A DNA stretch of 21,739 bases. Origin: a virus. Lineage: Duplodnaviria; Heunggongvirae; Uroviricota; Caudoviricetes. Position 1 is the first letter of the stretch. Every line of letters starts with the position of its first letter. The stretch lies in the IMG/VR virus record IMGVR_UViG_3300045988_065712. The stretch is one strand, 5' to 3'. This document shows, piece by piece, positions 1,956 to 10,348 of the stretch. The notes under the pieces are model-generated. The model searched no databases. It was not told where the DNA came from and was given only the letters and a program-made list of their open reading frames with translations. Both the position numbers and the translations under genes were made by a program.

Positions 1956-4403
1956 TTAACCGTCATGCATCATGCTGGCACGGGCGCGCGCACGTTTATC
2001 CCGCTCGTATTTTTCGAGCGCATCCTGTAACTGGCGGTCGAGCTGTGTCCCCGGCGCAGTACCACCCGTCAGGCTGATGTGATATTCGTTTTTACTCTGG
2101 TCTACATAAGAGCGGCCAGCCGGTGCCGTGACTGGCTGATAAGCCTGATAACCTGCATAAGAGCTGGTCGCCGGAATATAACCACCGCTGCCATACGTGG
2201 CGGCTTGAGTTCTGGCGGCGGTCTGGTCAAGTGTGTCTGACTCTTTGTTGATAACACCGAGTTTTTCCAGTACCCAGTCAATACCACTGCGCAGTTTGTT
2301 GAACGCATTAAGCGGCAGCATCAGCGCGTCAGCCAGTGCCTGCCCGAACATGACGCCCGTGTCACGGCAACGGTTCAGGGTGTCCTGGGTGGCTTTGACC
2401 GGGGCAATCAGGTTTTTAAACCACTGCCACGCGGCCTGTAACTTTTCACCCAGCCAGTCAAACACCGGTTTAAGTGGCGCGAACAGTTCCCCCACCGGCG
2501 CAAATGCCGCTTTCAGCCCTTCCACCACACCGCCAAAGAATGCGCTGACAGGCTCCCAGTATTTACGGATAAGCAACGCCCCGGCGACAATGGCGGCCAC
2601 CACGGCCACAACCGGCCAGCTAATCGCCCCGATGGCGGTTATAACAGCACTGCCAACCGTCGTGAAGATTGCCCCCATTGCGCCTGCTGCCGCGATGATG
2701 GCATTGATGCCGGTGATAACCGGCCAGGCTACGAGGCCAATGGCACCGATGACACCAATCAGTGCCAGTGCACCACCGACAATGATGCCGATGGTTGACG
2801 CCAGTGATTTGTTTTTCTGGATCCAGCCGTCGAGTTTTAACACATACTTTGTGGCCGTCTGCGTGAGATTACGCAGTGCGCCTTCCTGCTGGTCAAACAG
2901 GTCAGTCCCCACCGCCTCATAAGCGGACTGAAACTCCTTAAAGTCACCGCCGAGGTTGTCCTGCATGATATTTACCAGCTCTGCGGTCTTCCCGTCTGAG
3001 GCTTTAAACGCAGCGGTCAGTTTGTCCAGCTTTCCGGTTGAGGCGGCAGTCATCAGCACAGCGGCGGCTGAGCTGGCCTCCTCCCCGAAAATGGTTTTCA
3101 TGTATTCAGCCTGCTGGGCAGTACCGAGCCGGTTTTTCTCAAAACTGGCCTGCATTTCTTTCAGAATGGTAAATATTGGCCGGGTGTTTCCCTTGCTGTC
3201 TGAGGTTTTCACTCCAAGCTCTTTGAGTGCATCCCATGCTTTTCCCGTCGGTGCCTGCAGGCGGCTTAACACGGCACGGCTTCCCGTCCCCGCCATTGAG
3301 CCTGTGATTTTTGCATCATGCAGCGCCCCGACCATTGCGGCGGTTTCTTCAATGCTGACACCGGCATTTTTTGCCACAGGTGCGGCATAGGTCAGCGCAT
3401 CGCTCATGCCGTCAAAATCGGCGGCGGTTTTGTTCATCGTCATGGAGAGAACATCCCCGATATGAGCGACCTTATCGTTTGAAAGCTGAAAGGCGGATTT
3501 CATCCCCATCAGCAGGGCGGCGTTTTCTTCCATCGTGCGGCGGTTCGCCAGCGCCATATTCAGCGTGACCGGCGTTGCCGCCTGAATGGCATCAACATCC
3601 CCACCGGCTTTCGCAATGATAATCTGTGCACCGGCTGCATCATCTGCCGAGGCTGCGGTATTGTCGCCGAGCTGGCGCGCCTGCTTGCGGAGTGCGGTCA
3701 TTTCGGCGGAGTCTTTTGCCACTCCCAGCACAGCCTGCAATTCTGAGTTTTTCTGCGCAAACTCATAACCGGGCATCAGCAGCTTAACTCCGGCCATCGT
3801 TCCCGCAGCAGCAATCCCCACACCGGCAGCGCCCACCGAGACCATATTTCCGGCCAGCTCCTTTCCGGCCTGATAACGCTGTTTGACTGCGTTAAGTTTT
3901 GCCTGTTGCGCACTGACACGCGCCAGCGCGTCGCGCTGACGGTTAAGCTGTGCGGTGGTTTCACTGATACGGTTTTTCAGTCCCTGCTCATCATGTGCAA
4001 GATTGCGGGTATTAATTCCCACAGCGGCCAGTTCCCGCTGCTGGCGTTTAACGGAATCCGTCAGGCGGTTATATTTCGCCTGTAAGTCCTCCGCCGCACG
4101 CTTTGCGGATTCCAGCACTTTCGCCTGAGCACGGGTCGGACGTTCGGTGTTTTTAAACTGTGTGGCAAGGGCTTCGGCTTCCTGCCGAGCCTTTTCAAGT
4201 GCATGACCAGTCACGGCGAGCTGTGCACTGGTCTTGCGGAATCCCTCAATACGGGATGCCTGACCGTTCAGCTCGCGCAGTGATTTTTGTGTTTCCCGGA
4301 TATCCCCCGACAGCGACTTGCTCGCTGTGCGGATGGATTTAAACGGGCGGGATGCCTGGTCAACAGCCCTGAGCAATACCTGTAATTTTACATTGTTACT
4401 CAT
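1956..4403 (-). CDS. T: Tail tape-measure protein (P2 gpT-like), 815 aa
   Basis: 815-aa ORF with coiled-coil-like N-terminal half (many Q/R/E/A/L) and a Gly/Ala/Ile-rich hydrophobic segment (GGALALIGVIGAIGLVAWPVITGINAIIAAAGAMGAIF). Located directly after E/E'. Confidence 0.9.
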   Translation of the reverse strand: MSNNVKLQVLLRAVDQASRPFKSIRTASKSLSGDIRETQKSLRELNGQASRIEGFRKTSAQLAVTGHALEKARQEAEALATQFKNTERPTRAQAKVLESAKRAAEDLQAKYNRLTDSVKRQQRELAAVGINTRNLAHDEQGLKNRISETTAQLNRQRDALARVSAQQAKLNAVKQRYQAGKELAGNMVSVGAAGVGIAAAGTMAGVKLLMPGYEFAQKNSELQAVLGVAKDSAEMTALRKQARQLGDNTAASADDAAGAQIIIAKAGGDVDAIQAATPVTLNMALANRRTMEENAALLMGMKSAFQLSNDKVAHIGDVLSMTMNKTAADFDGMSDALTYAAPVAKNAGVSIEETAAMVGALHDAKITGSMAGTGSRAVLSRLQAPTGKAWDALKELGVKTSDSKGNTRPIFTILKEMQASFEKNRLGTAQQAEYMKTIFGEEASSAAAVLMTAASTGKLDKLTAAFKASDGKTAELVNIMQDNLGGDFKEFQSAYEAVGTDLFDQQEGALRNLTQTATKYVLKLDGWIQKNKSLASTIGIIVGGALALIGVIGAIGLVAWPVITGINAIIAAAGAMGAIFTTVGSAVITAIGAISWPVVAVVAAIVAGALLIRKYWEPVSAFFGGVVEGLKAAFAPVGELFAPLKPVFDWLGEKLQAAWQWFKNLIAPVKATQDTLNRCRDTGVMFGQALADALMLPLNAFNKLRSGIDWVLEKLGVINKESDTLDQTAARTQAATYGSGGYIPATSSYAGYQAYQPVTAPAGRSYVDQSKNEYHISLTGGTAPGTQLDRQLQDALEKYERDKRARARASMMHDG

Positions 4404-4823
4404 TCGTGTTTCCGCTTCGCCGGAGCGCCTTTTCGCGCCATGTGATGAGTTCGGTCAGGCTCATGGGATACAGTTCTGATGGCGGCCAGTGAAATATCAC
4501 TGCCACATCCGCCATCAGGTCATCGACCGAGAGATTTTTCGGAAACGTCACTGCACCGAGTTCGGCGACAAAAAACCGACCACCTTACCGGCCAGCGCCA
4601 CAAGGTCAGGCAGTTCCAGCGCGGCGATCTCCTGCTCGGTCAGCATCGGTGCCGTCATGCGCGGCAGCACTTTAATCAGTGCATCGACTTCGGAGTTTGC
4701 GACCGCAGCCAGACTGACACCGCGCAGCGTCCCGGCATTGGGTTTCATCAGCGTGACCTGTTCGATAACCTGTTCACCACGTTTAACCGGATTATCCAGG
4801 GTAATGACGTTTTCTTTGTTCAT
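4396..4823 (-). CDS. E+E': E+E' frameshift-extended tail chaperone (about 142 aa) made by -1 programmed ribosomal frameshift
   Basis: Slippery heptamer T TTT TTG in the zero frame on the minus strand (plus 4575..4569). I traced the -1 frame by hand from 4569 down to the first stop (TAA at 4398..4396) with no intervening stop, giving about 57 extra codons and a few bases of overlap with the T start. Total about 142 aa, matching P2 E+E' as recalled. Confidence 0.8.
4548..4823 (-). CDS. E: Tail assembly chaperone E (P2 gpE-like), 91 aa
   Basis: 91-aa ORF immediately upstream of the tape-measure gene. Ends ...GKVVGFLSPNSVQ and contains the slippery heptamer. Confidence 0.9.
   Translation of the reverse strand: MNKENVITLDNPVKRGEQVIEQVTLMKPNAGTLRGVSLAAVANSEVDALIKVLPRMTAPMLTEQEIAALELPDLVALAGKVVGFLSPNSVQ
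4569..4575 (-). other. Programmed -1 ribosomal frameshift slippery site (T TTT TTG)
   Basis: Minus-strand codons GGT TTT TTG read directly from the sequence near the 3' end of E. Conserved position for the tail-chaperone frameshift upstream of tape-measure genes. Confidence 0.8.
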
Positions 4824-4879
4824 GGTTTTCTCACTTCTGAATCGGGGTTAACCGGTCAGCCAGGCTGACCGGATGAAAA

Positions 4880-5398
4880 TCACAGGCCGATATTGCGGCG
4901 GTGTTGCTCCAGCCGGTCGACGCCGTTCACCTTCTCAATCATGTTGATGGTGTCGATTTCGACCAGCTCCTTACCGTCCATCGTCAGCCGGAAATAGGTG
5001 CAGACCACGGAGATTTTCGACTCGGTGTCTTCTCCCTGTTTACCCTCGCCGGTGTCGATTTCTTTCTGACGGCCACGCATGACCACCTCGACGGCCACCG
5101 TTTCGCCGGTATCGTCGCGCTGGTAAGAGCCTGCAAAACGAATCGGTACGGCATCCACACCGGTTGCGGCGTAAAGCTCCCAGATAACCGAATCCGGGAA
5201 GCCCCCGAGCGACCACTCCATTGACAGCGCATCGTCATCAAGGCCGAGGTCTACCGGTGCGCTGCCGTTCATCCCCGCACCGCGATAGTTTTCGAGCTTA
5301 CGGGTCAGTTTTGGCAGCGTGACGGACTTCGCGACGCCCTGATAGCTGTAGCCGTTCAGAAAGACGTTCATTAACTTGAGTTTGCGCGGCATTGCCAT
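4880..5398 (-). CDS. FII: Tail tube protein (P2 gpFII-like), 172 aa
   Basis: 172-aa ORF directly downstream of the sheath gene. Length and order match P2 FII. Confidence 0.9.
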   Translation of the reverse strand: MAMPRKLKLMNVFLNGYSYQGVAKSVTLPKLTRKLENYRGAGMNGSAPVDLGLDDDALSMEWSLGGFPDSVIWELYAATGVDAVPIRFAGSYQRDDTGETVAVEVVMRGRQKEIDTGEGKQGEDTESKISVVCTYFRLTMDGKELVEIDTINMIEKVNGVDRLEQHRRNIGL

Positions 5399-5410
5399 CG
5401 GTCAGGCTCC

Positions 5411-6601
5411 TTAATTGCTGTTAACCGAGGTGACCAGATTTGCCAGGTATTTATCGGTAATACGCTGGCGCAGGGTCAGGTTTTCAAGAGGAGGCACCGG
5501 TGTATAGTCGTAGTCGATATACAGTTTTCCGGCCTTGAGGGTTTCCGCATCGTTGGATTCTTCGCTGAACCAGCAGGTCGCATCCACGATATAGCCGTTT
5601 GTTTTCAGCTCACGGAATTTGGCATTGATGCCGTCAACGATGTCGCGAATCAGCGTTGCGGTGATGGGCTTGTCCACCGCCCACATGTGCGCCTCAGCCA
5701 TCGTGTCGGCCAGCACCTGCGCGGTGCGGGTGTAGTTTTCAAAGAGGAACAGCGGGTCATCAGAGCAGGTACGGTTACCCCAGAAGCGGAAACCGTCGCG
5801 GCGAATCAGCGTAGTGACGCCTGACTCGTTAAGCAGGTCAGCATCGGTGCCGGACTCCTGCAAATCCCAGAATACAGATGCGCTGATGCCGGTAACACCG
5901 TTCACCCCGACGTTGGACAGCGTTTTATGCCAGCCCTGCTCCTGGTCGATTTTAGCGCGCAGCCCCAGCGCACGAGCGGTGGCATACGCGGTGGCGGTGG
6001 TACTGGTGACCGTATCCCATGCGAGGAAATCCGGCCAGATGACCATCAGCTCACGCTGGCTGAAATTCTGGCGGTAGGCTTTCACCTCGGAAATGGTCTT
6101 ACAGCCCCATGCGCTGATATACCCGAAAGCGCGCAGCTTCTGACAGACTGATGCCAGTGCTACAGCCACCTCTTTGGTATCCAGTCCCGGCACACCAAGA
6201 ATACGCGGTTTAACACCGGTTACCGACTCTGCCGCCAGCAGGGCTTTCAGTCCGGTGTACTGACCGTTTTCGTCAGTGGTGCCGATGATATTGGAAACGG
6301 TCTGCGCAAGTTTCGTTTCTTCGTCGTCGCCGGTGCCGTCCTCCACGCGCACAACAACGGTGACCGGTTTTGACTGGTCGGCGATAGCCTGCAACGATGC
6401 CGCCAGCGTGCCTTTTTTACCGGCCTTTGCAATTGCGCTCTGCACATTGGTAATCAGCACCGGTTTATTGAGGGGGAAGGTTTCCGCATCCGCATCGCTG
6501 GCCGTGCAGACCATGCCAACAATGGCAGTGGATACGGTGGAAATGACACGGGTGCCGTCGTTAATCTCCAGCACCTGCACGCCGTGATGATAGTCACTCA
6601 T
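5411..6601 (-). CDS. FI: Contractile tail sheath protein (P2 gpFI-like), 396 aa
   Basis: 396-aa ORF, first gene of the sheath-tube-chaperone-tape-measure block. Length matches P2 FI. Confidence 0.9.
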   Translation of the reverse strand: MSDYHHGVQVLEINDGTRVISTVSTAIVGMVCTASDADAETFPLNKPVLITNVQSAIAKAGKKGTLAASLQAIADQSKPVTVVVRVEDGTGDDEETKLAQTVSNIIGTTDENGQYTGLKALLAAESVTGVKPRILGVPGLDTKEVAVALASVCQKLRAFGYISAWGCKTISEVKAYRQNFSQRELMVIWPDFLAWDTVTSTTATAYATARALGLRAKIDQEQGWHKTLSNVGVNGVTGISASVFWDLQESGTDADLLNESGVTTLIRRDGFRFWGNRTCSDDPLFLFENYTRTAQVLADTMAEAHMWAVDKPITATLIRDIVDGINAKFRELKTNGYIVDATCWFSEESNDAETLKAGKLYIDYDYTPVPPLENLTLRQRITDKYLANLVTSVNSN

Positions 6602-6660: not shown

Positions 6661-7254
6661 CTATTTGTCCCGGTTGGCTAAGGGATGACACAATTTATTC
6701 TTTGTCGCTGATGAGGGGAATTTTTTATAGAGCGTGGACAGGCCAATATCAAAAATCAGCGCCACGCGTTGACGTGATTCACCCGCAGCCAGCAACCGTC
6801 CTGCCTGTTCCCACTCACTCGCGGTGAGCTTCGGACGTCTGCCACCAATACGACCTTTAGCTCTGGTCGCTTCCAGTCCGGCGCGTGTCCGCTCGACAAT
6901 GAGTTCTCGTTCCATTTCAGCCAGGGCACCCATCACATGAAAGAAAAAACGCCCCATCGGCGTGCTGGTATCAATAGCATCCGTCAGGCTGCGAAAATTA
7001 ACGCCGCGTTCGCGCAGCTCCTCAACCAGAATGACCAGATGCCGCATACTACGCCCCAGCCTGTCCAGCTTCCAGACCACCAGTGTATCCCCCTCCGATA
7101 ATGTCCTGAGCAGTTTTTTCAGTCCCGGTCGGTCGGACTTAGTGCCGCTGATTTTATCCTCAAAAATCAGCTCACATCCTGCGCACTCCAGCGCGTTACG
7201 CTGCAATTCCGTGTTCTGGTCATTTGTTGACACGCGTACATAGCCAATAAGCAT
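6661..7254 (-). CDS. Site-specific DNA invertase, small serine recombinase of the Hin/Gin/Cin/Pin family
   Basis: N-terminus MLIGYVRVSTNDQNTELQRNALE... carries the catalytic-serine motif (VRVSTNDQ). Also GDTLVVWKLDRLGRS, FFHVMGALAEMERELIVERT and a C-terminal HTH-like segment (LSTLYKK). Start set at the third Met of the ORF-track ORF (7254), which has an AGGGGG Shine-Dalgarno about 6 nt upstream. The track start at 7260 is the alternative. Confidence 0.9.
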   Translation of the reverse strand: MLIGYVRVSTNDQNTELQRNALECAGCELIFEDKISGTKSDRPGLKKLLRTLSEGDTLVVWKLDRLGRSMRHLVILVEELRERGVNFRSLTDAIDTSTPMGRFFFHVMGALAEMERELIVERTRAGLEATRAKGRIGGRRPKLTASEWEQAGRLLAAGESRQRVALIFDIGLSTLYKKFPSSATKNKLCHPLANRDK

Positions 7255-7309
7255 GAGCATCCCCCTGAATAAAAACCGGAGATGATGCCAGTTACCCGTT
7301 GTCTCTGCA

Positions 7310-7335
7310 TTTTCATAAACGTTGGTTTGGGGGAA
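7310..7335. other. Candidate invertase crossover site (ttttcatAAACG-TT-GGTTTgggggaa)
   Basis: Contains the AAACx-NN-xGTTT core typical of Hin/Gin-family recombination sites. Lies about 55-80 bp upstream of the invertase start, where hix/gix-type sites sit, and at the 5' boundary of the promoterless fibre-tip cassette. Overall match to hix/gix is only partial. Confidence 0.4.
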
Positions 7336-7755
7336 GGCTCTGCACTGCCTGTTGGTGTGCCCGTTCCGTGGCCCTTAGAAACACCACCAACGGGCTGGCT
7401 AAAATGCAATGGTGCAGCATTTTCTTCTGAAATGTATCCCAAACTGGCAAAAGCCTACCCCACCAATAAATTACCGGATTTACGCGGTGAATTTATCCGT
7501 GGCTGGGATGATGGGCGCGGGATTGATGCGGGACGTACCCTGCTTTCAGGGCAGGATGGTACAAGTTTTTCTCATTACGGAGGTAATTTCGACATTGGGT
7601 CTGGTCATTCAATCAATAACTATGACCAAATTGTTTCTAACCAACCAGGATTTTCCCGTTTTTCATTTGCAGGGCCTTCACGAGGTGATGGGGTTAATTA
7701 TGTAACCATTCGTCCTCGTAACATTGCGTTTAATTATATCGTAAGGGCGGCATGA
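7322..7755 (+). CDS. Promoterless alternative tail-fibre C-terminal (receptor-binding tip) cassette, about 145 codons, opposite orientation to H
   Basis: ORF 7282..7755 encodes ...GEGSALPVGVPVPWPLETPPTGWLKCNGAAFSSEMYPKLAKAYPTNKLPDLRGEFIRGWDDGRGIDAGR..., a tail-collar-type fibre tip like the variable tip segments of Mu/P1-type invertible tail-fibre systems. No Shine-Dalgarno or promoter. The N-terminal 13 codons of the track ORF are read-through of the invertase promoter region. Confidence 0.7.
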
Positions 7756-7774
7756 AAACGTTCGTTTCGAACAG
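7749..7774. other. Second crossover-like site (ggcatgAAAACG-TT-CGTTTcgaacag) overlapping the cassette stop codon
   Basis: 12-mer aaacgttcgttt (7756..7767) is an 11/12 match to aaacgttggttt (7317..7328), with the same TT core on the same strand, so a direct repeat. Perfect 5-bp dyad AAACG/CGTTT around the core. Confidence 0.3.
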
Positions 7775-7803
7775 GAGGAGTAGCGGAGGGCTATGTTGCT
7801 TAG

Positions 7804-7851
7804 TTTGAAAATAGCTGGTCTTGCTGATGCGCATTGATGTAGCAAGACCAG
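7804..7851 (-). terminator. Probable rho-independent terminator of the V-W-J-I-H-G tail operon (11-bp stem, U-rich tail on minus strand)
   Basis: Perfect inverted repeat ctggtcttgct (7815..7825) and agcaagaccag (7841..7851) with a 15-nt loop. On the minus strand it lies 7 nt downstream of the G stop codon and is followed by CUAUUUUC. Confidence 0.5.
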
Positions 7852-7857
7852 TATGGT

Positions 7858-8226
7858 CTAAAGTTCCGGGATGACAGGCCAGTTAACATGCTCAGGGTCG
7901 GTTGTTACATCAACAGCCTTAACCTGATTCTTATATAAAAGCCACGCCGAAAGTTTAGCTCTGTTGGCATCGCTGATTTCACCCAGCATCAGCTCTGTGC
8001 GCCAGTCGAGCATAATTGCATCAGCGGCGGACAGTAATCGCTGTCGCTCATTTTCAGCAGCCTGGATGAGTTGTTCATGAGTCGGTGGGGGATTAATAAT
8101 TGCCATAGCCTCACTTCTGGTGATTGGCACAAGCCCTTCTTTGATAAAAGCATCCTGTGTGCCATACGCATCGTAGGCATATACGACGTTATTTTCATCT
8201 TTGTAATACTTCATCATTGTTATCAT
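7858..8226 (-). CDS. G: Tail fibre assembly chaperone (P2 gpG/Tfa-like function), 122 aa
   Basis: 122-aa ORF immediately downstream of the tail-fibre gene, with ATGA start/stop overlap with H. C-terminal ...HVNWPVIPEL is typical of Tfa chaperones. Shorter than, and unlike, P2 G as recalled. Confidence 0.8.
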   Translation of the reverse strand: MITMMKYYKDENNVVYAYDAYGTQDAFIKEGLVPITRSEAMAIINPPPTHEQLIQAAENERQRLLSAADAIMLDWRTELMLGEISDANRAKLSAWLLYKNQVKAVDVTTDPEHVNWPVIPEL

Positions 8227-9740
8227 TTTTTATCCACCTCTACCCAGGTAACATCTGACACTGTTCCTGAAAACTGCTGCACAATATAGGTCGCACCGGC
8301 AGGAACCATGAATGCGATAGTTGCTCTTTGCCCTGCAAGATTTGTTGTCTGAGAGCCGCGAAAATTAGCCGAATTACCATCCACATTAACGTTGGCGCTC
8401 AGAAATGAACTACCGTCAGACAGCACCGCATTGACGCTTACAAATATGGCGAAAGACTGGCTGTTGGTGTATACGACACCGAGATTTCTAGATTTCATTC
8501 CGCATTGACCAAACAACCCTTTCATATCTGAATAGTTTTGTGATGCAGCAAGTGATGATGCAGCAACACCAGATTCTGTTGATGTTCTGGAATCAGATAC
8601 GCGGATAATTCCCTTGTTTGTAGTGGTTGCATCATTAGTCTTGCCTTGCAGAGCTACAATATCCGCATAATTCATCGCTGCCGCTTTTGCTGTTGCAGCA
8701 AGCGTTTCAGATTCGGATACCCTTGATGATGTAAGTTGAACAATTCCTTTCTGTGTCGTAGTTGAATCCTGAGTTTTGTTTTGCAAAGATTTTATGTCCG
8801 TATAGTTTTGCGCGACAGCATTAGCTGTGGCTGCAATATCCTCTGCACCCGATACCCGCGATGAGGTTAACCGGACTAAACCCACCTGTGTTGTTGATGC
8901 GTCTTTAATACCAAGGTATGCAAGAAGACCGGCAACATCCTTCCCACTCAAATGAGTCAGCGTCTCATCCAGTGGCTGCTTACCTGACAGCGCATTGTTA
9001 ATGGTGGTACTGAATTTCGGGTCATTGTTAATGGCTGCGGCAATTTCTTTCAGTGTGTCCAGCGTGGCTGGCGCACCGTTAATCAGAGCGGTAATAGCGG
9101 CCTGAACAAACTCAGTGGTCGCAATCCGCGTGGTGTTATTTCCTGCGGCAGGCGTCGGCGCTTTTGGTTCTCCGGTAAATGTCGGATTATGTTTCTGTGC
9201 ATACTGGGTATGAGGATCCTGTGCGGCAATGTGGTTTCTCATCTGGTCATCCACATACAGCCTTAATTCCAGGACTTCATCATCCACGTATTTACGGGTC
9301 GCCAGTACCACCGACGGGTCGATTTTCAGCGTGATAGCTTCGGTATTCGTGACAACCAGAATCATGCGGATAGTCTGGGTACGACCGCTGCCTTCCTGCA
9401 ACTGCGGTTTGTACGTTTCCGGGCAGTTCGCCACCGCAATGAGTACGCCTTCATCATCATAAAGCCCAATCTCACGGATCCAGAATCCGCCCTCGTTCTC
9501 AGGGATGATTTGCTCCGCAATAATCTGGCTCTGGTTGTTCGGGTCAACACTCAGAAGATTCAGCGGCGCGATGCGTTTCTGGTTAATCAGTTTTGTCTGT
9601 GCCGGGTCTGGTGTCGGCAAGACACCATTCGCATCACCAACTGCCATTTGCGTCAGATTCAGCTTACTGCCGAGCATCGTCGCGTTAGCCAGCCGTGCTG
9701 CGCCCTGATTAGTCAGAATGGCGTAGTATTTCACTGTCAT
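8223..9740 (-). CDS. H: Tail fibre protein (P2 gpH-like N-terminus, divergent C-terminal half), 505 aa
   Basis: N-terminal region (AVGDANGVLPTP..., GGFWIREIGLYDDEGVLIAVANCPETYKPQLQEGSGRTQTIRMILVV) resembles the conserved baseplate-attachment domain of P2 H. Central triple repeat and a distinct C-terminal domain. Positioned between I and G. Confidence 0.88.
   Translation of the reverse strand: MTVKYYAILTNQGAARLANATMLGSKLNLTQMAVGDANGVLPTPDPAQTKLINQKRIAPLNLLSVDPNNQSQIIAEQIIPENEGGFWIREIGLYDDEGVLIAVANCPETYKPQLQEGSGRTQTIRMILVVTNTEAITLKIDPSVVLATRKYVDDEVLELRLYVDDQMRNHIAAQDPHTQYAQKHNPTFTGEPKAPTPAAGNNTTRIATTEFVQAAITALINGAPATLDTLKEIAAAINNDPKFSTTINNALSGKQPLDETLTHLSGKDVAGLLAYLGIKDASTTQVGLVRLTSSRVSGAEDIAATANAVAQNYTDIKSLQNKTQDSTTTQKGIVQLTSSRVSESETLAATAKAAAMNYADIVALQGKTNDATTTNKGIIRVSDSRTSTESGVAASSLAASQNYSDMKGLFGQCGMKSRNLGVVYTNSQSFAIFVSVNAVLSDGSSFLSANVNVDGNSANFRGSQTTNLAGQRATIAFMVPAGATYIVQQFSGTVSDVTWVEVDKK
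8511..8900 (-). repeat. Three tandem copies of a roughly 45-codon (135-bp) repeat inside the tail-fibre shaft of H
   Basis: Protein residues about 281-410: ASTTQVGLVRLTSSRVSGAEDIAATANAVAQNYTDIKSLQNKTQD / STTTQKGIVQLTSSRVSESETLAATAKAAAMNYADIVALQGKTND / ATTTNKGIIRVSDSRTSTESGVAASSLAASQNYSDMKGLFGQ. The DNA-level periodicity is visible. Confidence 0.65.
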
Positions 9741-10348
9741 GCGTTTACTCTCAGGTTATCAATTAAATGAATGGCCGAGGCCGGGAAATAATCCCCTCCG
9801 ACAATAATGGCCTCCGGGGTGTAGGGATAAACCGTCAGGGCGTCGCCGTGATAGCATCCTGCACCGGCAAAAATGTTGCCGGTTGTACTTAAACTGATAG
9901 CCAGTCCCGTCAGATGGCGGCTTGCAGGTTTTGCATCAGCAACGAGACGCTCCAGCTCCTGATACATTTCCTCGGTAATACCCTGCTCAAGCACGCCAAC
10001 AACGATGCGGAACGTCCCCGGCTCCTCGTTGAGCTGCCACCACTCCCTCACCTCAATCAGATAGCCGAGCGGCTCCACCACACGGCGAATCGCACCAATA
10101 GTGCCCTTATGGCAGTGAATGAAATACGCATCGCGGATAACAGCGCGTTTTGTCGCTTCCGGCCACTTATCATCCCAGCGGTCAACCGAAAATGACCACG
10201 CCAGCCACGGCAGCAGATTTGCCGGACAGGTATCCGGGTTCCACAGCTCACGAATACTGACCGGCGTTTTTTCAATTTCCGCACAGGCTCTTGCGGCGGC
10301 GACTTCAAGCGGTGATGAGCCGGTCGGCAGCAGTCGCGAATCACTCAT
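9737..10348 (-). CDS. I: Baseplate protein (P2 gpI-like), 203 aa
   Basis: ORF between J and H with 4-nt overlap with H. Resembles the P2 gpI N-terminus as recalled. Longer than the 176 aa of P2 I. Confidence 0.85.
   Translation of the reverse strand: MSDSRLLPTGSSPLEVAAARACAEIEKTPVSIRELWNPDTCPANLLPWLAWSFSVDRWDDKWPEATKRAVIRDAYFIHCHKGTIGAIRRVVEPLGYLIEVREWWQLNEEPGTFRIVVGVLEQGITEEMYQELERLVADAKPASRHLTGLAISLSTTGNIFAGAGCYHGDALTVYPYTPEAIIVGGDYFPASAIHLIDNLRVNA

Follow-up and report, generated by a model that had tools for sequence, protein, structure and literature searches.

The DNA analysed here, a stretch of 21,739 bp that we call the window, carries tail genes of a P2-like (Peduovirus-type) prophage, which are encoded on the minus strand (Table 1). 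Its tail fibre protein H is composed of a constant N-terminal part and a variable C-terminal part, and a chaperone gene matching the current tip follows. Between these genes and that of a serine DNA invertase, a silent cassette encoding an alternative fibre tip occupies the plus strand; it lacks a tail-fibre assembly gene. ORF 7282-7755, which takes in this cassette, should be annotated as an alternative 3' segment of H and not as a gene in its own right. A stub of six codons lies beyond the cassette, and a hairpin next to the chaperone gene is likely the terminator of the H-tfa operon.

Table 1. Features of the fibre and invertase region, in window coordinates
Feature	Position	Strand	Description
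Serine DNA invertase (Din family, Pin/Min/Cin-like)	6661-7254	-	197 aa from ATG 7254; Pfam Resolvase 9.8e-52, HTH_7 1.1e-12
Predicted Fis-dependent recombinational enhancer	7165-7236	-	Invertase gene nt 19-90; homology to P1 cin
Crossover site 1 (invertase-proximal, pixR-like)	7310-7335	+	TTTTCATAAACG TT GGTTTGGGGGAA; core 7322-7323; rank 1, 25.0 bits
Silent alternative fibre-tip cassette	7324-7755	+	143 aa, GLGEGSALPVG…NIAFNYIVRAA and stop; Pfam Collar 7e-15
Crossover site 2 (probable hybrid or scar)	7749-7774	+	GGCATGAAAACG TT CGTTTCGAACAG; core 7761-7762; rank 3, 10.5 bits
Six-codon stub RFEQEE and stop	7763-7783	+	Would join the H constant part upon recombination of the H site with site 2
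Hairpin	7815-7851	-	11-bp stem, 15-nt loop, then UAUUUUC; fold of 7745-7862 (-): -24.9 kcal/mol, z = -3.2
Tail-fibre assembly chaperone, cognate to current H tip	7858-8226	-	122 aa; Pfam Caudo_TAP 1.4e-18
Tail fibre H	8223-9740	-	505 aa; Phage_tail_fib N-terminal domain and fibre repeats
H variable C-terminal part, currently expressed	8223-8912	-	Residues 277-505; three ~45-aa fibre repeats and tip; Phage_fiber_2 repeat
Crossover site H, inside the H gene	8901-8926	-	Sense TTCTTGCATACC TT GGTATTAAAGAC; + strand GTCTTTAATACC AA GGTATGCAAGAA; core 8913-8914; rank 2, 20.9 bits
H constant N-terminal part (P2 H-like)	8915-9740	-	Residues 1-276; Pfam Phage_tail_fib 1.4e-62

The invertase combines a resolvase domain, an active-site serine (within YVRVSTNDQ) and a C-terminal HTH_7 domain, as expected of a Din-family recombinase. 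Its reading frame reaches an upstream ATG at 7260, and it matches the Gin invertase structures 3uj3 and 4m6f with an E value of 6e-94. Sequence identity is 97.5% to the invertase of phage pro483, 80% to the Min-like invertase of pMS6198C and 79% to P1 Cin. Close to the 5' end of the gene, 58 of 72 nt agree with the stretch that is annotated at the equal position in P1 cin as 'enhancer of Cin-mediated C-segment inversion'. By this homology the segment is a putative recombinational enhancer; coding constraint also contributes to the similarity and could account for much of it.

The original prediction for this locus concerned two 12-mers that flank the cassette, AAACGTTGGTTT (7317-7328) and AAACGTTCGTTT (7756-7767), proposed to be direct repeats with the layout of Hin/Gin-family crossover sites. 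At these coordinates, both on the plus strand, the two do agree at 11 of 12 positions, and each has its TT centre on that strand, confirming the direct orientation. The shared pattern AAACNTTNGTTT is matched only at these two places when both strands of the window are considered. In dinucleotide-preserving shuffles it occurred 0.08 times on average, and twice in just one of 100 shuffles. On the strength of these shuffles and of the homology breakpoints described below, we reject a chance origin of the pair. The first 12-mer lies upstream of the invertase start, as had been proposed. The second was thought to overlap the cassette stop codon; the 12-mer itself begins right after that stop (TGA, 7753-7755), and the overlap holds for the full site around it. 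Din-family sites are 26 bp long, with a 2-bp core flanked by two 12-bp half-sites (PMC3241671, Table 3). The 12-mers are the centres of such sites, the functional unit being the 26-bp sequence.

Published sites resemble both sequences. Site 1 is the reverse complement of the e14 pixR site at 25 of 26 positions (PMC3241671), and its central 19 nt are identical to the 3' site of EC958 Phi2 (PMC4134206, Table 3), for which inversion has been shown by PacBio long-read assembly (PMC4134206). The left half of site 2, GGCATGAAAACG, is the 3' end of a mix-type cassette, the published p15B mix sites reading …CGTTTTTATGCC (PMC3241671). The centre of site 2, AAACG TT CGTTT, is identical to the published family consensus (PMC4134206). 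The assignment of the 12-mers to the Hin/Gin family in the original prediction is supported.

We scanned the whole window (~21,700 positions) with a half-site matrix derived from 13 published enteric Din sites. The three sites in Table 1 took the first three ranks, and the next best position scored 6.5 bits. Among 100 shuffled windows, the maximum score had a median of 9.5 bits and a 95th percentile of 13.7 bits, and it reached 15.9 bits overall. None of the shuffled windows reached the score of site 1 or that of the H site, whereas site 2 lies within their maxima. Removing the pix and mix sites from the matrix left site 1 (20.8 bits) at rank 1 and the H site (18.4 bits) at rank 2, and site 2 dropped to rank 35. 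The published sites themselves, scored leave-one-out, range from 12.3 to 30.6 bits, and every one has a half-site of at least 11 bits. Site 1 and the H site fall within this range of proven sites. In the H site, the half on the variable side (GGTATTAAAGAC) is a moderate match only. The half-sites of site 2 score 5.6 and 4.8 bits, and its total is below that of every published site. Judged by these scores, site 1 and the H site look competent and site 2 looks weak; the latter is probably a low-frequency quasi-site at best. The matrix scan put forward as a check on the original prediction is clearly passed by site 1. Site 2 does not rise above background in the scan and is validated instead by homology breakpoints that fall exactly at its core.

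The H site changes the picture of the locus, since the original prediction had found no convincing inverted partner inside H. The second-ranked position of the window lies within H and is in frame. Its core reads AA on the plus strand, against TT at sites 1 and 2, and it is inverted relative to both; in site 1 as in the H site, the core falls on the second and third positions of a codon. This site was overlooked earlier because its centre reads ATACC AA GGTAT and not AAAC..GTTT. A generic inverted-repeat search of positions 7200-9800 did not reveal it either, because only ~12 nt are shared, and the top pairs from that search were chance matches. We located the H site via the inverted repeat of pro483. 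Two other candidate partners had already been doubted, and rightly so: the matrix rank of 8503-8525 is at least 592 and this sequence is out of frame, while the rank of 8386-8399 is at least 51.

Homology to other genomes switches exactly at the core dinucleotide of each of the three sites. We counted identity over 40 nt on each side of every core. The left flank of site 1 matches pro483 at 39/40 positions, and its right flank matches the pMS6198C cassette at 40/40. Compared with the end of the pMS6198C cassette, site 2 is identical on the left (40/40) and agrees at 13/40 positions on the right; compared with loci L001 and L006, the pattern is reversed (13-16/40 on the left, 40/40 on the right). 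At the H site, homology to E2348/69 and EcPF16 ends at the core itself (39/40 on the left, 12-14/40 on the right), and pro483 matches at 20/40 on the left and 36/40 on the right. The segment 7762-8913, which contains the H tip and its chaperone, forms a module that ends at both cores and is found at 97-99% identity in L001, L005, L006, L020 and L023. It occurs with three different constant parts, which all end in a consensus half-site (GGTATGTGAGAA, GGTTTTCGAGAG or TGTTTTTGAGAA).

The cassette has close relatives on plasmids. Positions 7317-7767 match cassettes of P1-like E. coli plasmids (~97 kb) at 99-99.8% identity, and the match ends at both 12-mers. As a unit, the cassette is 99-100% identical to one member of the head-to-tail array of P1-like plasmids (p15B Min type), and it measures 439 bp from core to core in the window and in the plasmid array alike. 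On pMS6198C the cassette is silent, being one of four arranged head to tail beside the Min-like invertase; each is bounded by GGCAT(A/G)AAAACG TT GGTTTGG(G/A)GGAA, and the expressed strand has an inverted copy. On p10_578_3, this cassette is found in the expressed position, fused as …SVLDYL/GLGEG… (a slash marks the junction), and it recurs with the same boundaries in arrays of 5 to 8 sites (L002, L019). P1-like plasmid arrays are found in different permutations. The idea that the repeats are a remnant of a multi-site system was essentially right, the cassette being a near-perfect copy of one link in such a chain.

The right half of site 2 can be traced to a different group of relatives. In P2-like prophages without an alternative cassette, CGTTTCGAACAGGAGGAGTAG… directly adjoins the invertase gene, and this stub stands beside the invertase in L001, L006, L020, L021, L023 and L025. 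The stub junction reads TTTTCCAAAACG TT CGTTTCGAACAG in L006, TTTTAAAAAAGG TT CGTTTCGAACAG in L001 and TTTTCTTAAACG TT CGTTTCGAACAG in L025. The left flank of L025 resembles that of the window (51/60), whereas the left flanks of L006, L001 and three viral contigs with the same stub-invertase arrangement have diverged. When viral contigs were searched for the exact deletion junction with the window-type left half, there was no match; a relaxed BLAST search then gave L025. In effect, the window is an L025-type locus with one cassette unit added at the TT core and, equally, L025 is the window minus its cassette. The strong divergence of the left flanks suggests that the stub-invertase junction is old, and the near identity of the cassette to its plasmid copies suggests that it was acquired recently. 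Insertion is the more parsimonious direction of the event, although deletion may occur as a rare one. Most likely, the direct repeats are not an excision device but mark the two points at which site-specific recombination joined a captured cassette to the prophage. Their direct orientation would then be a result of this capture, and it is also normal in Min-type arrays.

We simulated recombination between site 1 and the H site. Inversion of 7324-8912 is predicted to yield an in-frame fusion of 419 aa that joins H residues 1-276 to the cassette, …DVAGLLAYL/GLGEGSALPVGVPVPWP…NYIVRAA followed by the stop, with …LLAYL/GLGEGSALPVG… at the junction. The predicted DNA junctions are TTTTCATAAACGTTGGTATTAAAGAC and TTCTTGCATACCTTGGTTTGGGGGAA. 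The intact 432-aa H protein of E. coli LR-24 is identical to this predicted fusion over its first 312 residues, junction included, and H residues 1-276 of the window are identical to the LR-24 protein. Many complete E. coli genomes align continuously across the simulated cassette-H junction, with other cassette variants. The locus has two inverted sites with identical core dinucleotides, site 1 and the H site, and a constant 5' part that can be joined in frame to alternative 3' parts, both of which are hallmarks of the Din family.

The related tip of LR-24 does have a downstream tail-fibre assembly gene; the cassette in the window, after simple inversion, would not.

Given the matrix scores, the breakpoints and the predicted fusion, we consider it quite probable that 7310-8926 is an invertible tail-fibre segment of a P2-like prophage, in which site 1 and the H site are the working pair and site 2 is a hybrid that arose when a Min-type cassette was captured. 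The segment would be driven by the Pin/Min/Cin-type invertase encoded next to it. By analogy with Hin, Gin and Cin, we infer that this enzyme, host Fis and the enhancer in the 5' end of the invertase gene would bring site 1 together with the H site. Staggered 2-bp cuts at the cores would then allow 7324-8912 to invert in this prophage, replacing the C-terminal 229 residues of H and the chaperone with the 143-residue tail-collar tip. The resulting 419-aa fibre may have a different receptor specificity. As for the origin of the arrangement, we infer an insertion: a 439-bp unit from the mix-bounded array of a P1-like (p15B Min-type) plasmid would have been spliced into the invertase-proximal site at its TT core. 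Site 2 would accordingly be made up of the conserved 3' end of the cassette on its left and, on its right, the invertase-adjacent half-site of the cassette-less relatives.

This organization has much in common with known inversion systems. As in e14 Pin (pixL/pixR), pro483 and EC958 Phi2, the invertase gene points away from the segment and a site lies just upstream of its start; the fusion junction, …AYL/GLGE…, is also the same as in this group. The arms of the longest inverted repeat in the pro483 fibre region are the invertase-proximal site and an H site, TTCTCGCATACC TT GGTTTGGGAGAA, to which the H site of the window corresponds. However, pro483-type segments consist of two mirror-image pairs of tip and chaperone with two sites only, whereas the window has one arm that lacks a chaperone, apparently imported from a Min-type array, and an extra internal site. 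P1 Cin/cix and Mu Gin/gix share with the window the recombinase family, the 26-bp sites with a 2-bp core and the in-frame fusion of a constant fibre part to alternative tips, but they differ from it in the number of sites. The putative enhancer homologue of the window lies, as they would lead one to expect, in the 5' end of the recombinase gene. The core of Mu gix is GA, unlike the TT/AA of the window, cix, pix and mix. P1 cin faces its segment, with cixL at the cin 3' end, whereas the window shares with Mu and e14 a site that lies upstream of the gene.

The Min multiple-inversion system of p15B, reportedly described by Sandmeier and colleagues in 1990 and 1992, is said to have six mix sites. 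There, tip cassettes are bounded by sites in direct orientation and the stop codon falls inside the next site; the cassette and boundary sites in the window are of this Min type, and the window invertase is 80% identical to the Min-like one. In contrast to p15B, the window has a single cassette and three sites, and it belongs to a P2-like chromosomal prophage and not to a P1-like plasmid. Its third site is a weak hybrid, the outer half of which is a six-codon stub rather than the 5' end of another cassette.

This resemblance raises the question of whether all three sites are active, which would make the locus a small Min-type multiple-inversion (shufflon-like) system. Four isomers would then be expected: one with the H tip and its chaperone; one with only the collar tip; one in which the silent H tip and the chaperone come after the collar tip on the same strand; and a tipless H ending in RFEQEE and a stop. 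We think this unlikely. The layout is that of a Min-type array to the extent that there are more than two sites and the cassette is bounded by two in direct orientation, and site 2 has the exact consensus centre, shares the core of the other sites and is inverted relative to the H site. Min-type arrays also use sites with equally weak cassette-end halves (the mix1 and mix2 halves score 1.2-1.6 bits), and in one isomer the collar tip would again be followed by a chaperone gene, as on the minus strand of pMS6198C. However, published mix sites each have a strong half-site, as do all other published sites at the 11-bit level, and neither half of site 2 reaches it; nor does its total exceed the shuffled-window maxima. 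Recombination between the H site and site 2 is predicted to produce a protein of 282 aa ending in …LLAYLRFEQEE. DNA junctions formed by an active site 2 would read GGCATGAAAACGTTGGTATTAAAGAC or TTCTTGCATACCTTCGTTTCGAACAG. The stub was joined to the H constant part in none of 8 independent stub-carrying loci and in none of 5,426 complete E. coli genomes. A scan of GTDB genomes gave no match to a site 2 junction or flipped form, and a second GTDB scan with the 19-nt stub returned chance matches in unrelated MAGs only. Because site 2 scores below every published site, we have classed the region as a two-site switch with a hybrid scar and not as a full Min-type shufflon.

The original prediction allowed for a different outcome, a cassette prone to deletion because recombination between the direct repeats would excise it. 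On this view the invertase has no usable inverted partner and would release the cassette as a circle. Such an event would leave the deletion junction TTTTCATAAACGTTCGTTTCGAACAG and a 439-bp circle with the junction GGCATGAAAACGTTGGTTTGGGGGAA. The repeats do have identical cores, relatives such as L025 and L006 carry exactly the junction that deletion would create, and Gin and Cin reportedly cause deletions at low frequency, as attributed to Plasterk and colleagues in 1983. Nevertheless, excision is very improbable as the expected behaviour. Invertases that depend on Fis and an enhancer strongly favour inversion over deletion, and the natural partner of site 1 is the in-frame H site, which scores far above site 2 with its two weak half-sites. 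The relatives with the stub appear to have an old junction, given their very divergent left flanks, and the cassette appears to be the recent element. In addition, two independent samples, distinguished by 9 differences over 11 kb, both still have the cassette.

These two samples are the only ones in which we found the window arrangement, and both have it in the same orientation. A metagenome scan returned only the window's own contig, OAZV01000014.1 (100% identical), and the other sample is an IMG/VR contig (99.92% over 11 kb). A search for the simulated product, with the H tip flipped beside the invertase, found none among 5,426 complete E. coli genomes. The flipped orientation of the segment was likewise absent from viral and metagenome contigs, a weak negative because assemblies report the majority state. 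One could take this absence, the rarity of the arrangement (1 metagenome contig, 1 viral contig, 0 complete E. coli genomes) and the missing chaperone gene to mean that the locus is a frozen relic, with recognisable sites, no further inversion and the cassette as dead cargo, but this reading is very improbable: the invertase is full length with its catalytic serine and HTH and 97.5% identical to its counterpart in pro483, which has a standard switch, the scores of site 1 and the H site lie in the range of proven sites, the cassette frame is intact and the fusion in frame, and the failure to see an isomer in majority-state assemblies is weak evidence.

A further and more tentative possibility is that Din-type sites dock mobile fibre-tip cassettes, much as integrons do. 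A 439-bp circle might be excised from a P1-like array via two direct mix sites, and the invertase might then insert it at the invertase-proximal site of a P2-like prophage whose only alternative was the six-codon stub, restoring a second receptor-binding tip. Were this so, stub-only prophages of the L001, L006 and L025 type would be empty acceptors, in which inversion otherwise gives a tipless fibre.

For the prophage, the segment offers a likely route to a change of host range, and the correct partners in it would be site 1 and the H site, not the direct repeats that bound the cassette. Exchange at crossover sites is a long-proposed route of tail-fibre evolution. The window would provide a case, resolved to the base pair, in which a P1-like phage-plasmid and a P2-like prophage have exchanged a receptor-binding module precisely at crossover cores. 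The current understanding of inversion systems is unchanged by it: the switch itself appears to be an ordinary host-range switch of the Pin/Cin type.

In the window, the open reading frame of the serine DNA invertase contains a pair of in-frame ATG codons, at 7260 and 7254. The homologous Cin, pro483 and Min-like invertases begin at the equivalent of the second, with MLIGYVRVS. On the fibre side, the expressed tip of H carries three back-to-back repeats of ~45 aa, N-terminal to its C-terminal domain, that follow the pattern …TTTQ/NKGI/LV/IRL/VTSSRVS…NY.DI..LQ.K. Only one of the three is picked up by the Pfam model Phage_fiber_2. Of two minus-strand hairpins, the larger is located 7 nt beyond the stop codon of the assembly gene, where it probably serves to terminate the operon. 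A terminator scan flagged a small potential fold within crossover site 2.

Features of the window and of related loci
Feature	Locus	Position	Strand	Detail
Expressed H tip	window	8223-8912		repeats in H residues ~277-420
Hairpin	window	7815-7851	-	11-bp stem, then UAUUUUC
Small hairpin within site 2	window	7759-7773	-	5-6-bp, then UUUUCAU
Three-site prophage locus	L003 (E. coli 47-1826 chromosome)	4053-6400
IS-interrupted relative	L007 (E. coli Res13-Lact-PEB08-01)	2324-4939
Cassette copy in expressed position of long fibre gene	L019 (plasmid p10_578_3)	4501-4948
Invertase-proximal site and stub	L001	2995-3030
Invertase-proximal site and stub	L006	2495-2530
Invertase-proximal site and stub	L025	3048-3085

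The nearest complete-genome relative of the window prophage, L007, is 100% identical in the invertase segment and 99.8% in the constant part of H; an IS66-family element sits in the variable part, within its invertible segment. The L003 prophage has three sites, like the window, but a different baseplate type (YmfQ, gp53-like). It carries a tandem pair of directly oriented collar cassettes, a pixL-like site within the expressed gene and a truncated invertase gene. In p10_578_3, a 1-nt deletion after …YPKLAK shifts the frame of the cassette copy, which makes this copy a pseudogene unless the deletion is a sequencing error.

Three further loci (L001, L006 and L025) and the viral contigs L020, L021 and L023 share another arrangement, in which the invertase-proximal site is followed by a six-codon stub, RFEQEE, and a stop. 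The invertible segment of these P2-like prophages holds a single H tip and its chaperone, and nothing else. Inversion would give a tipless fibre; because of this predicted product, the stub-only loci may be on/off switches, relics or empty cassette acceptors.
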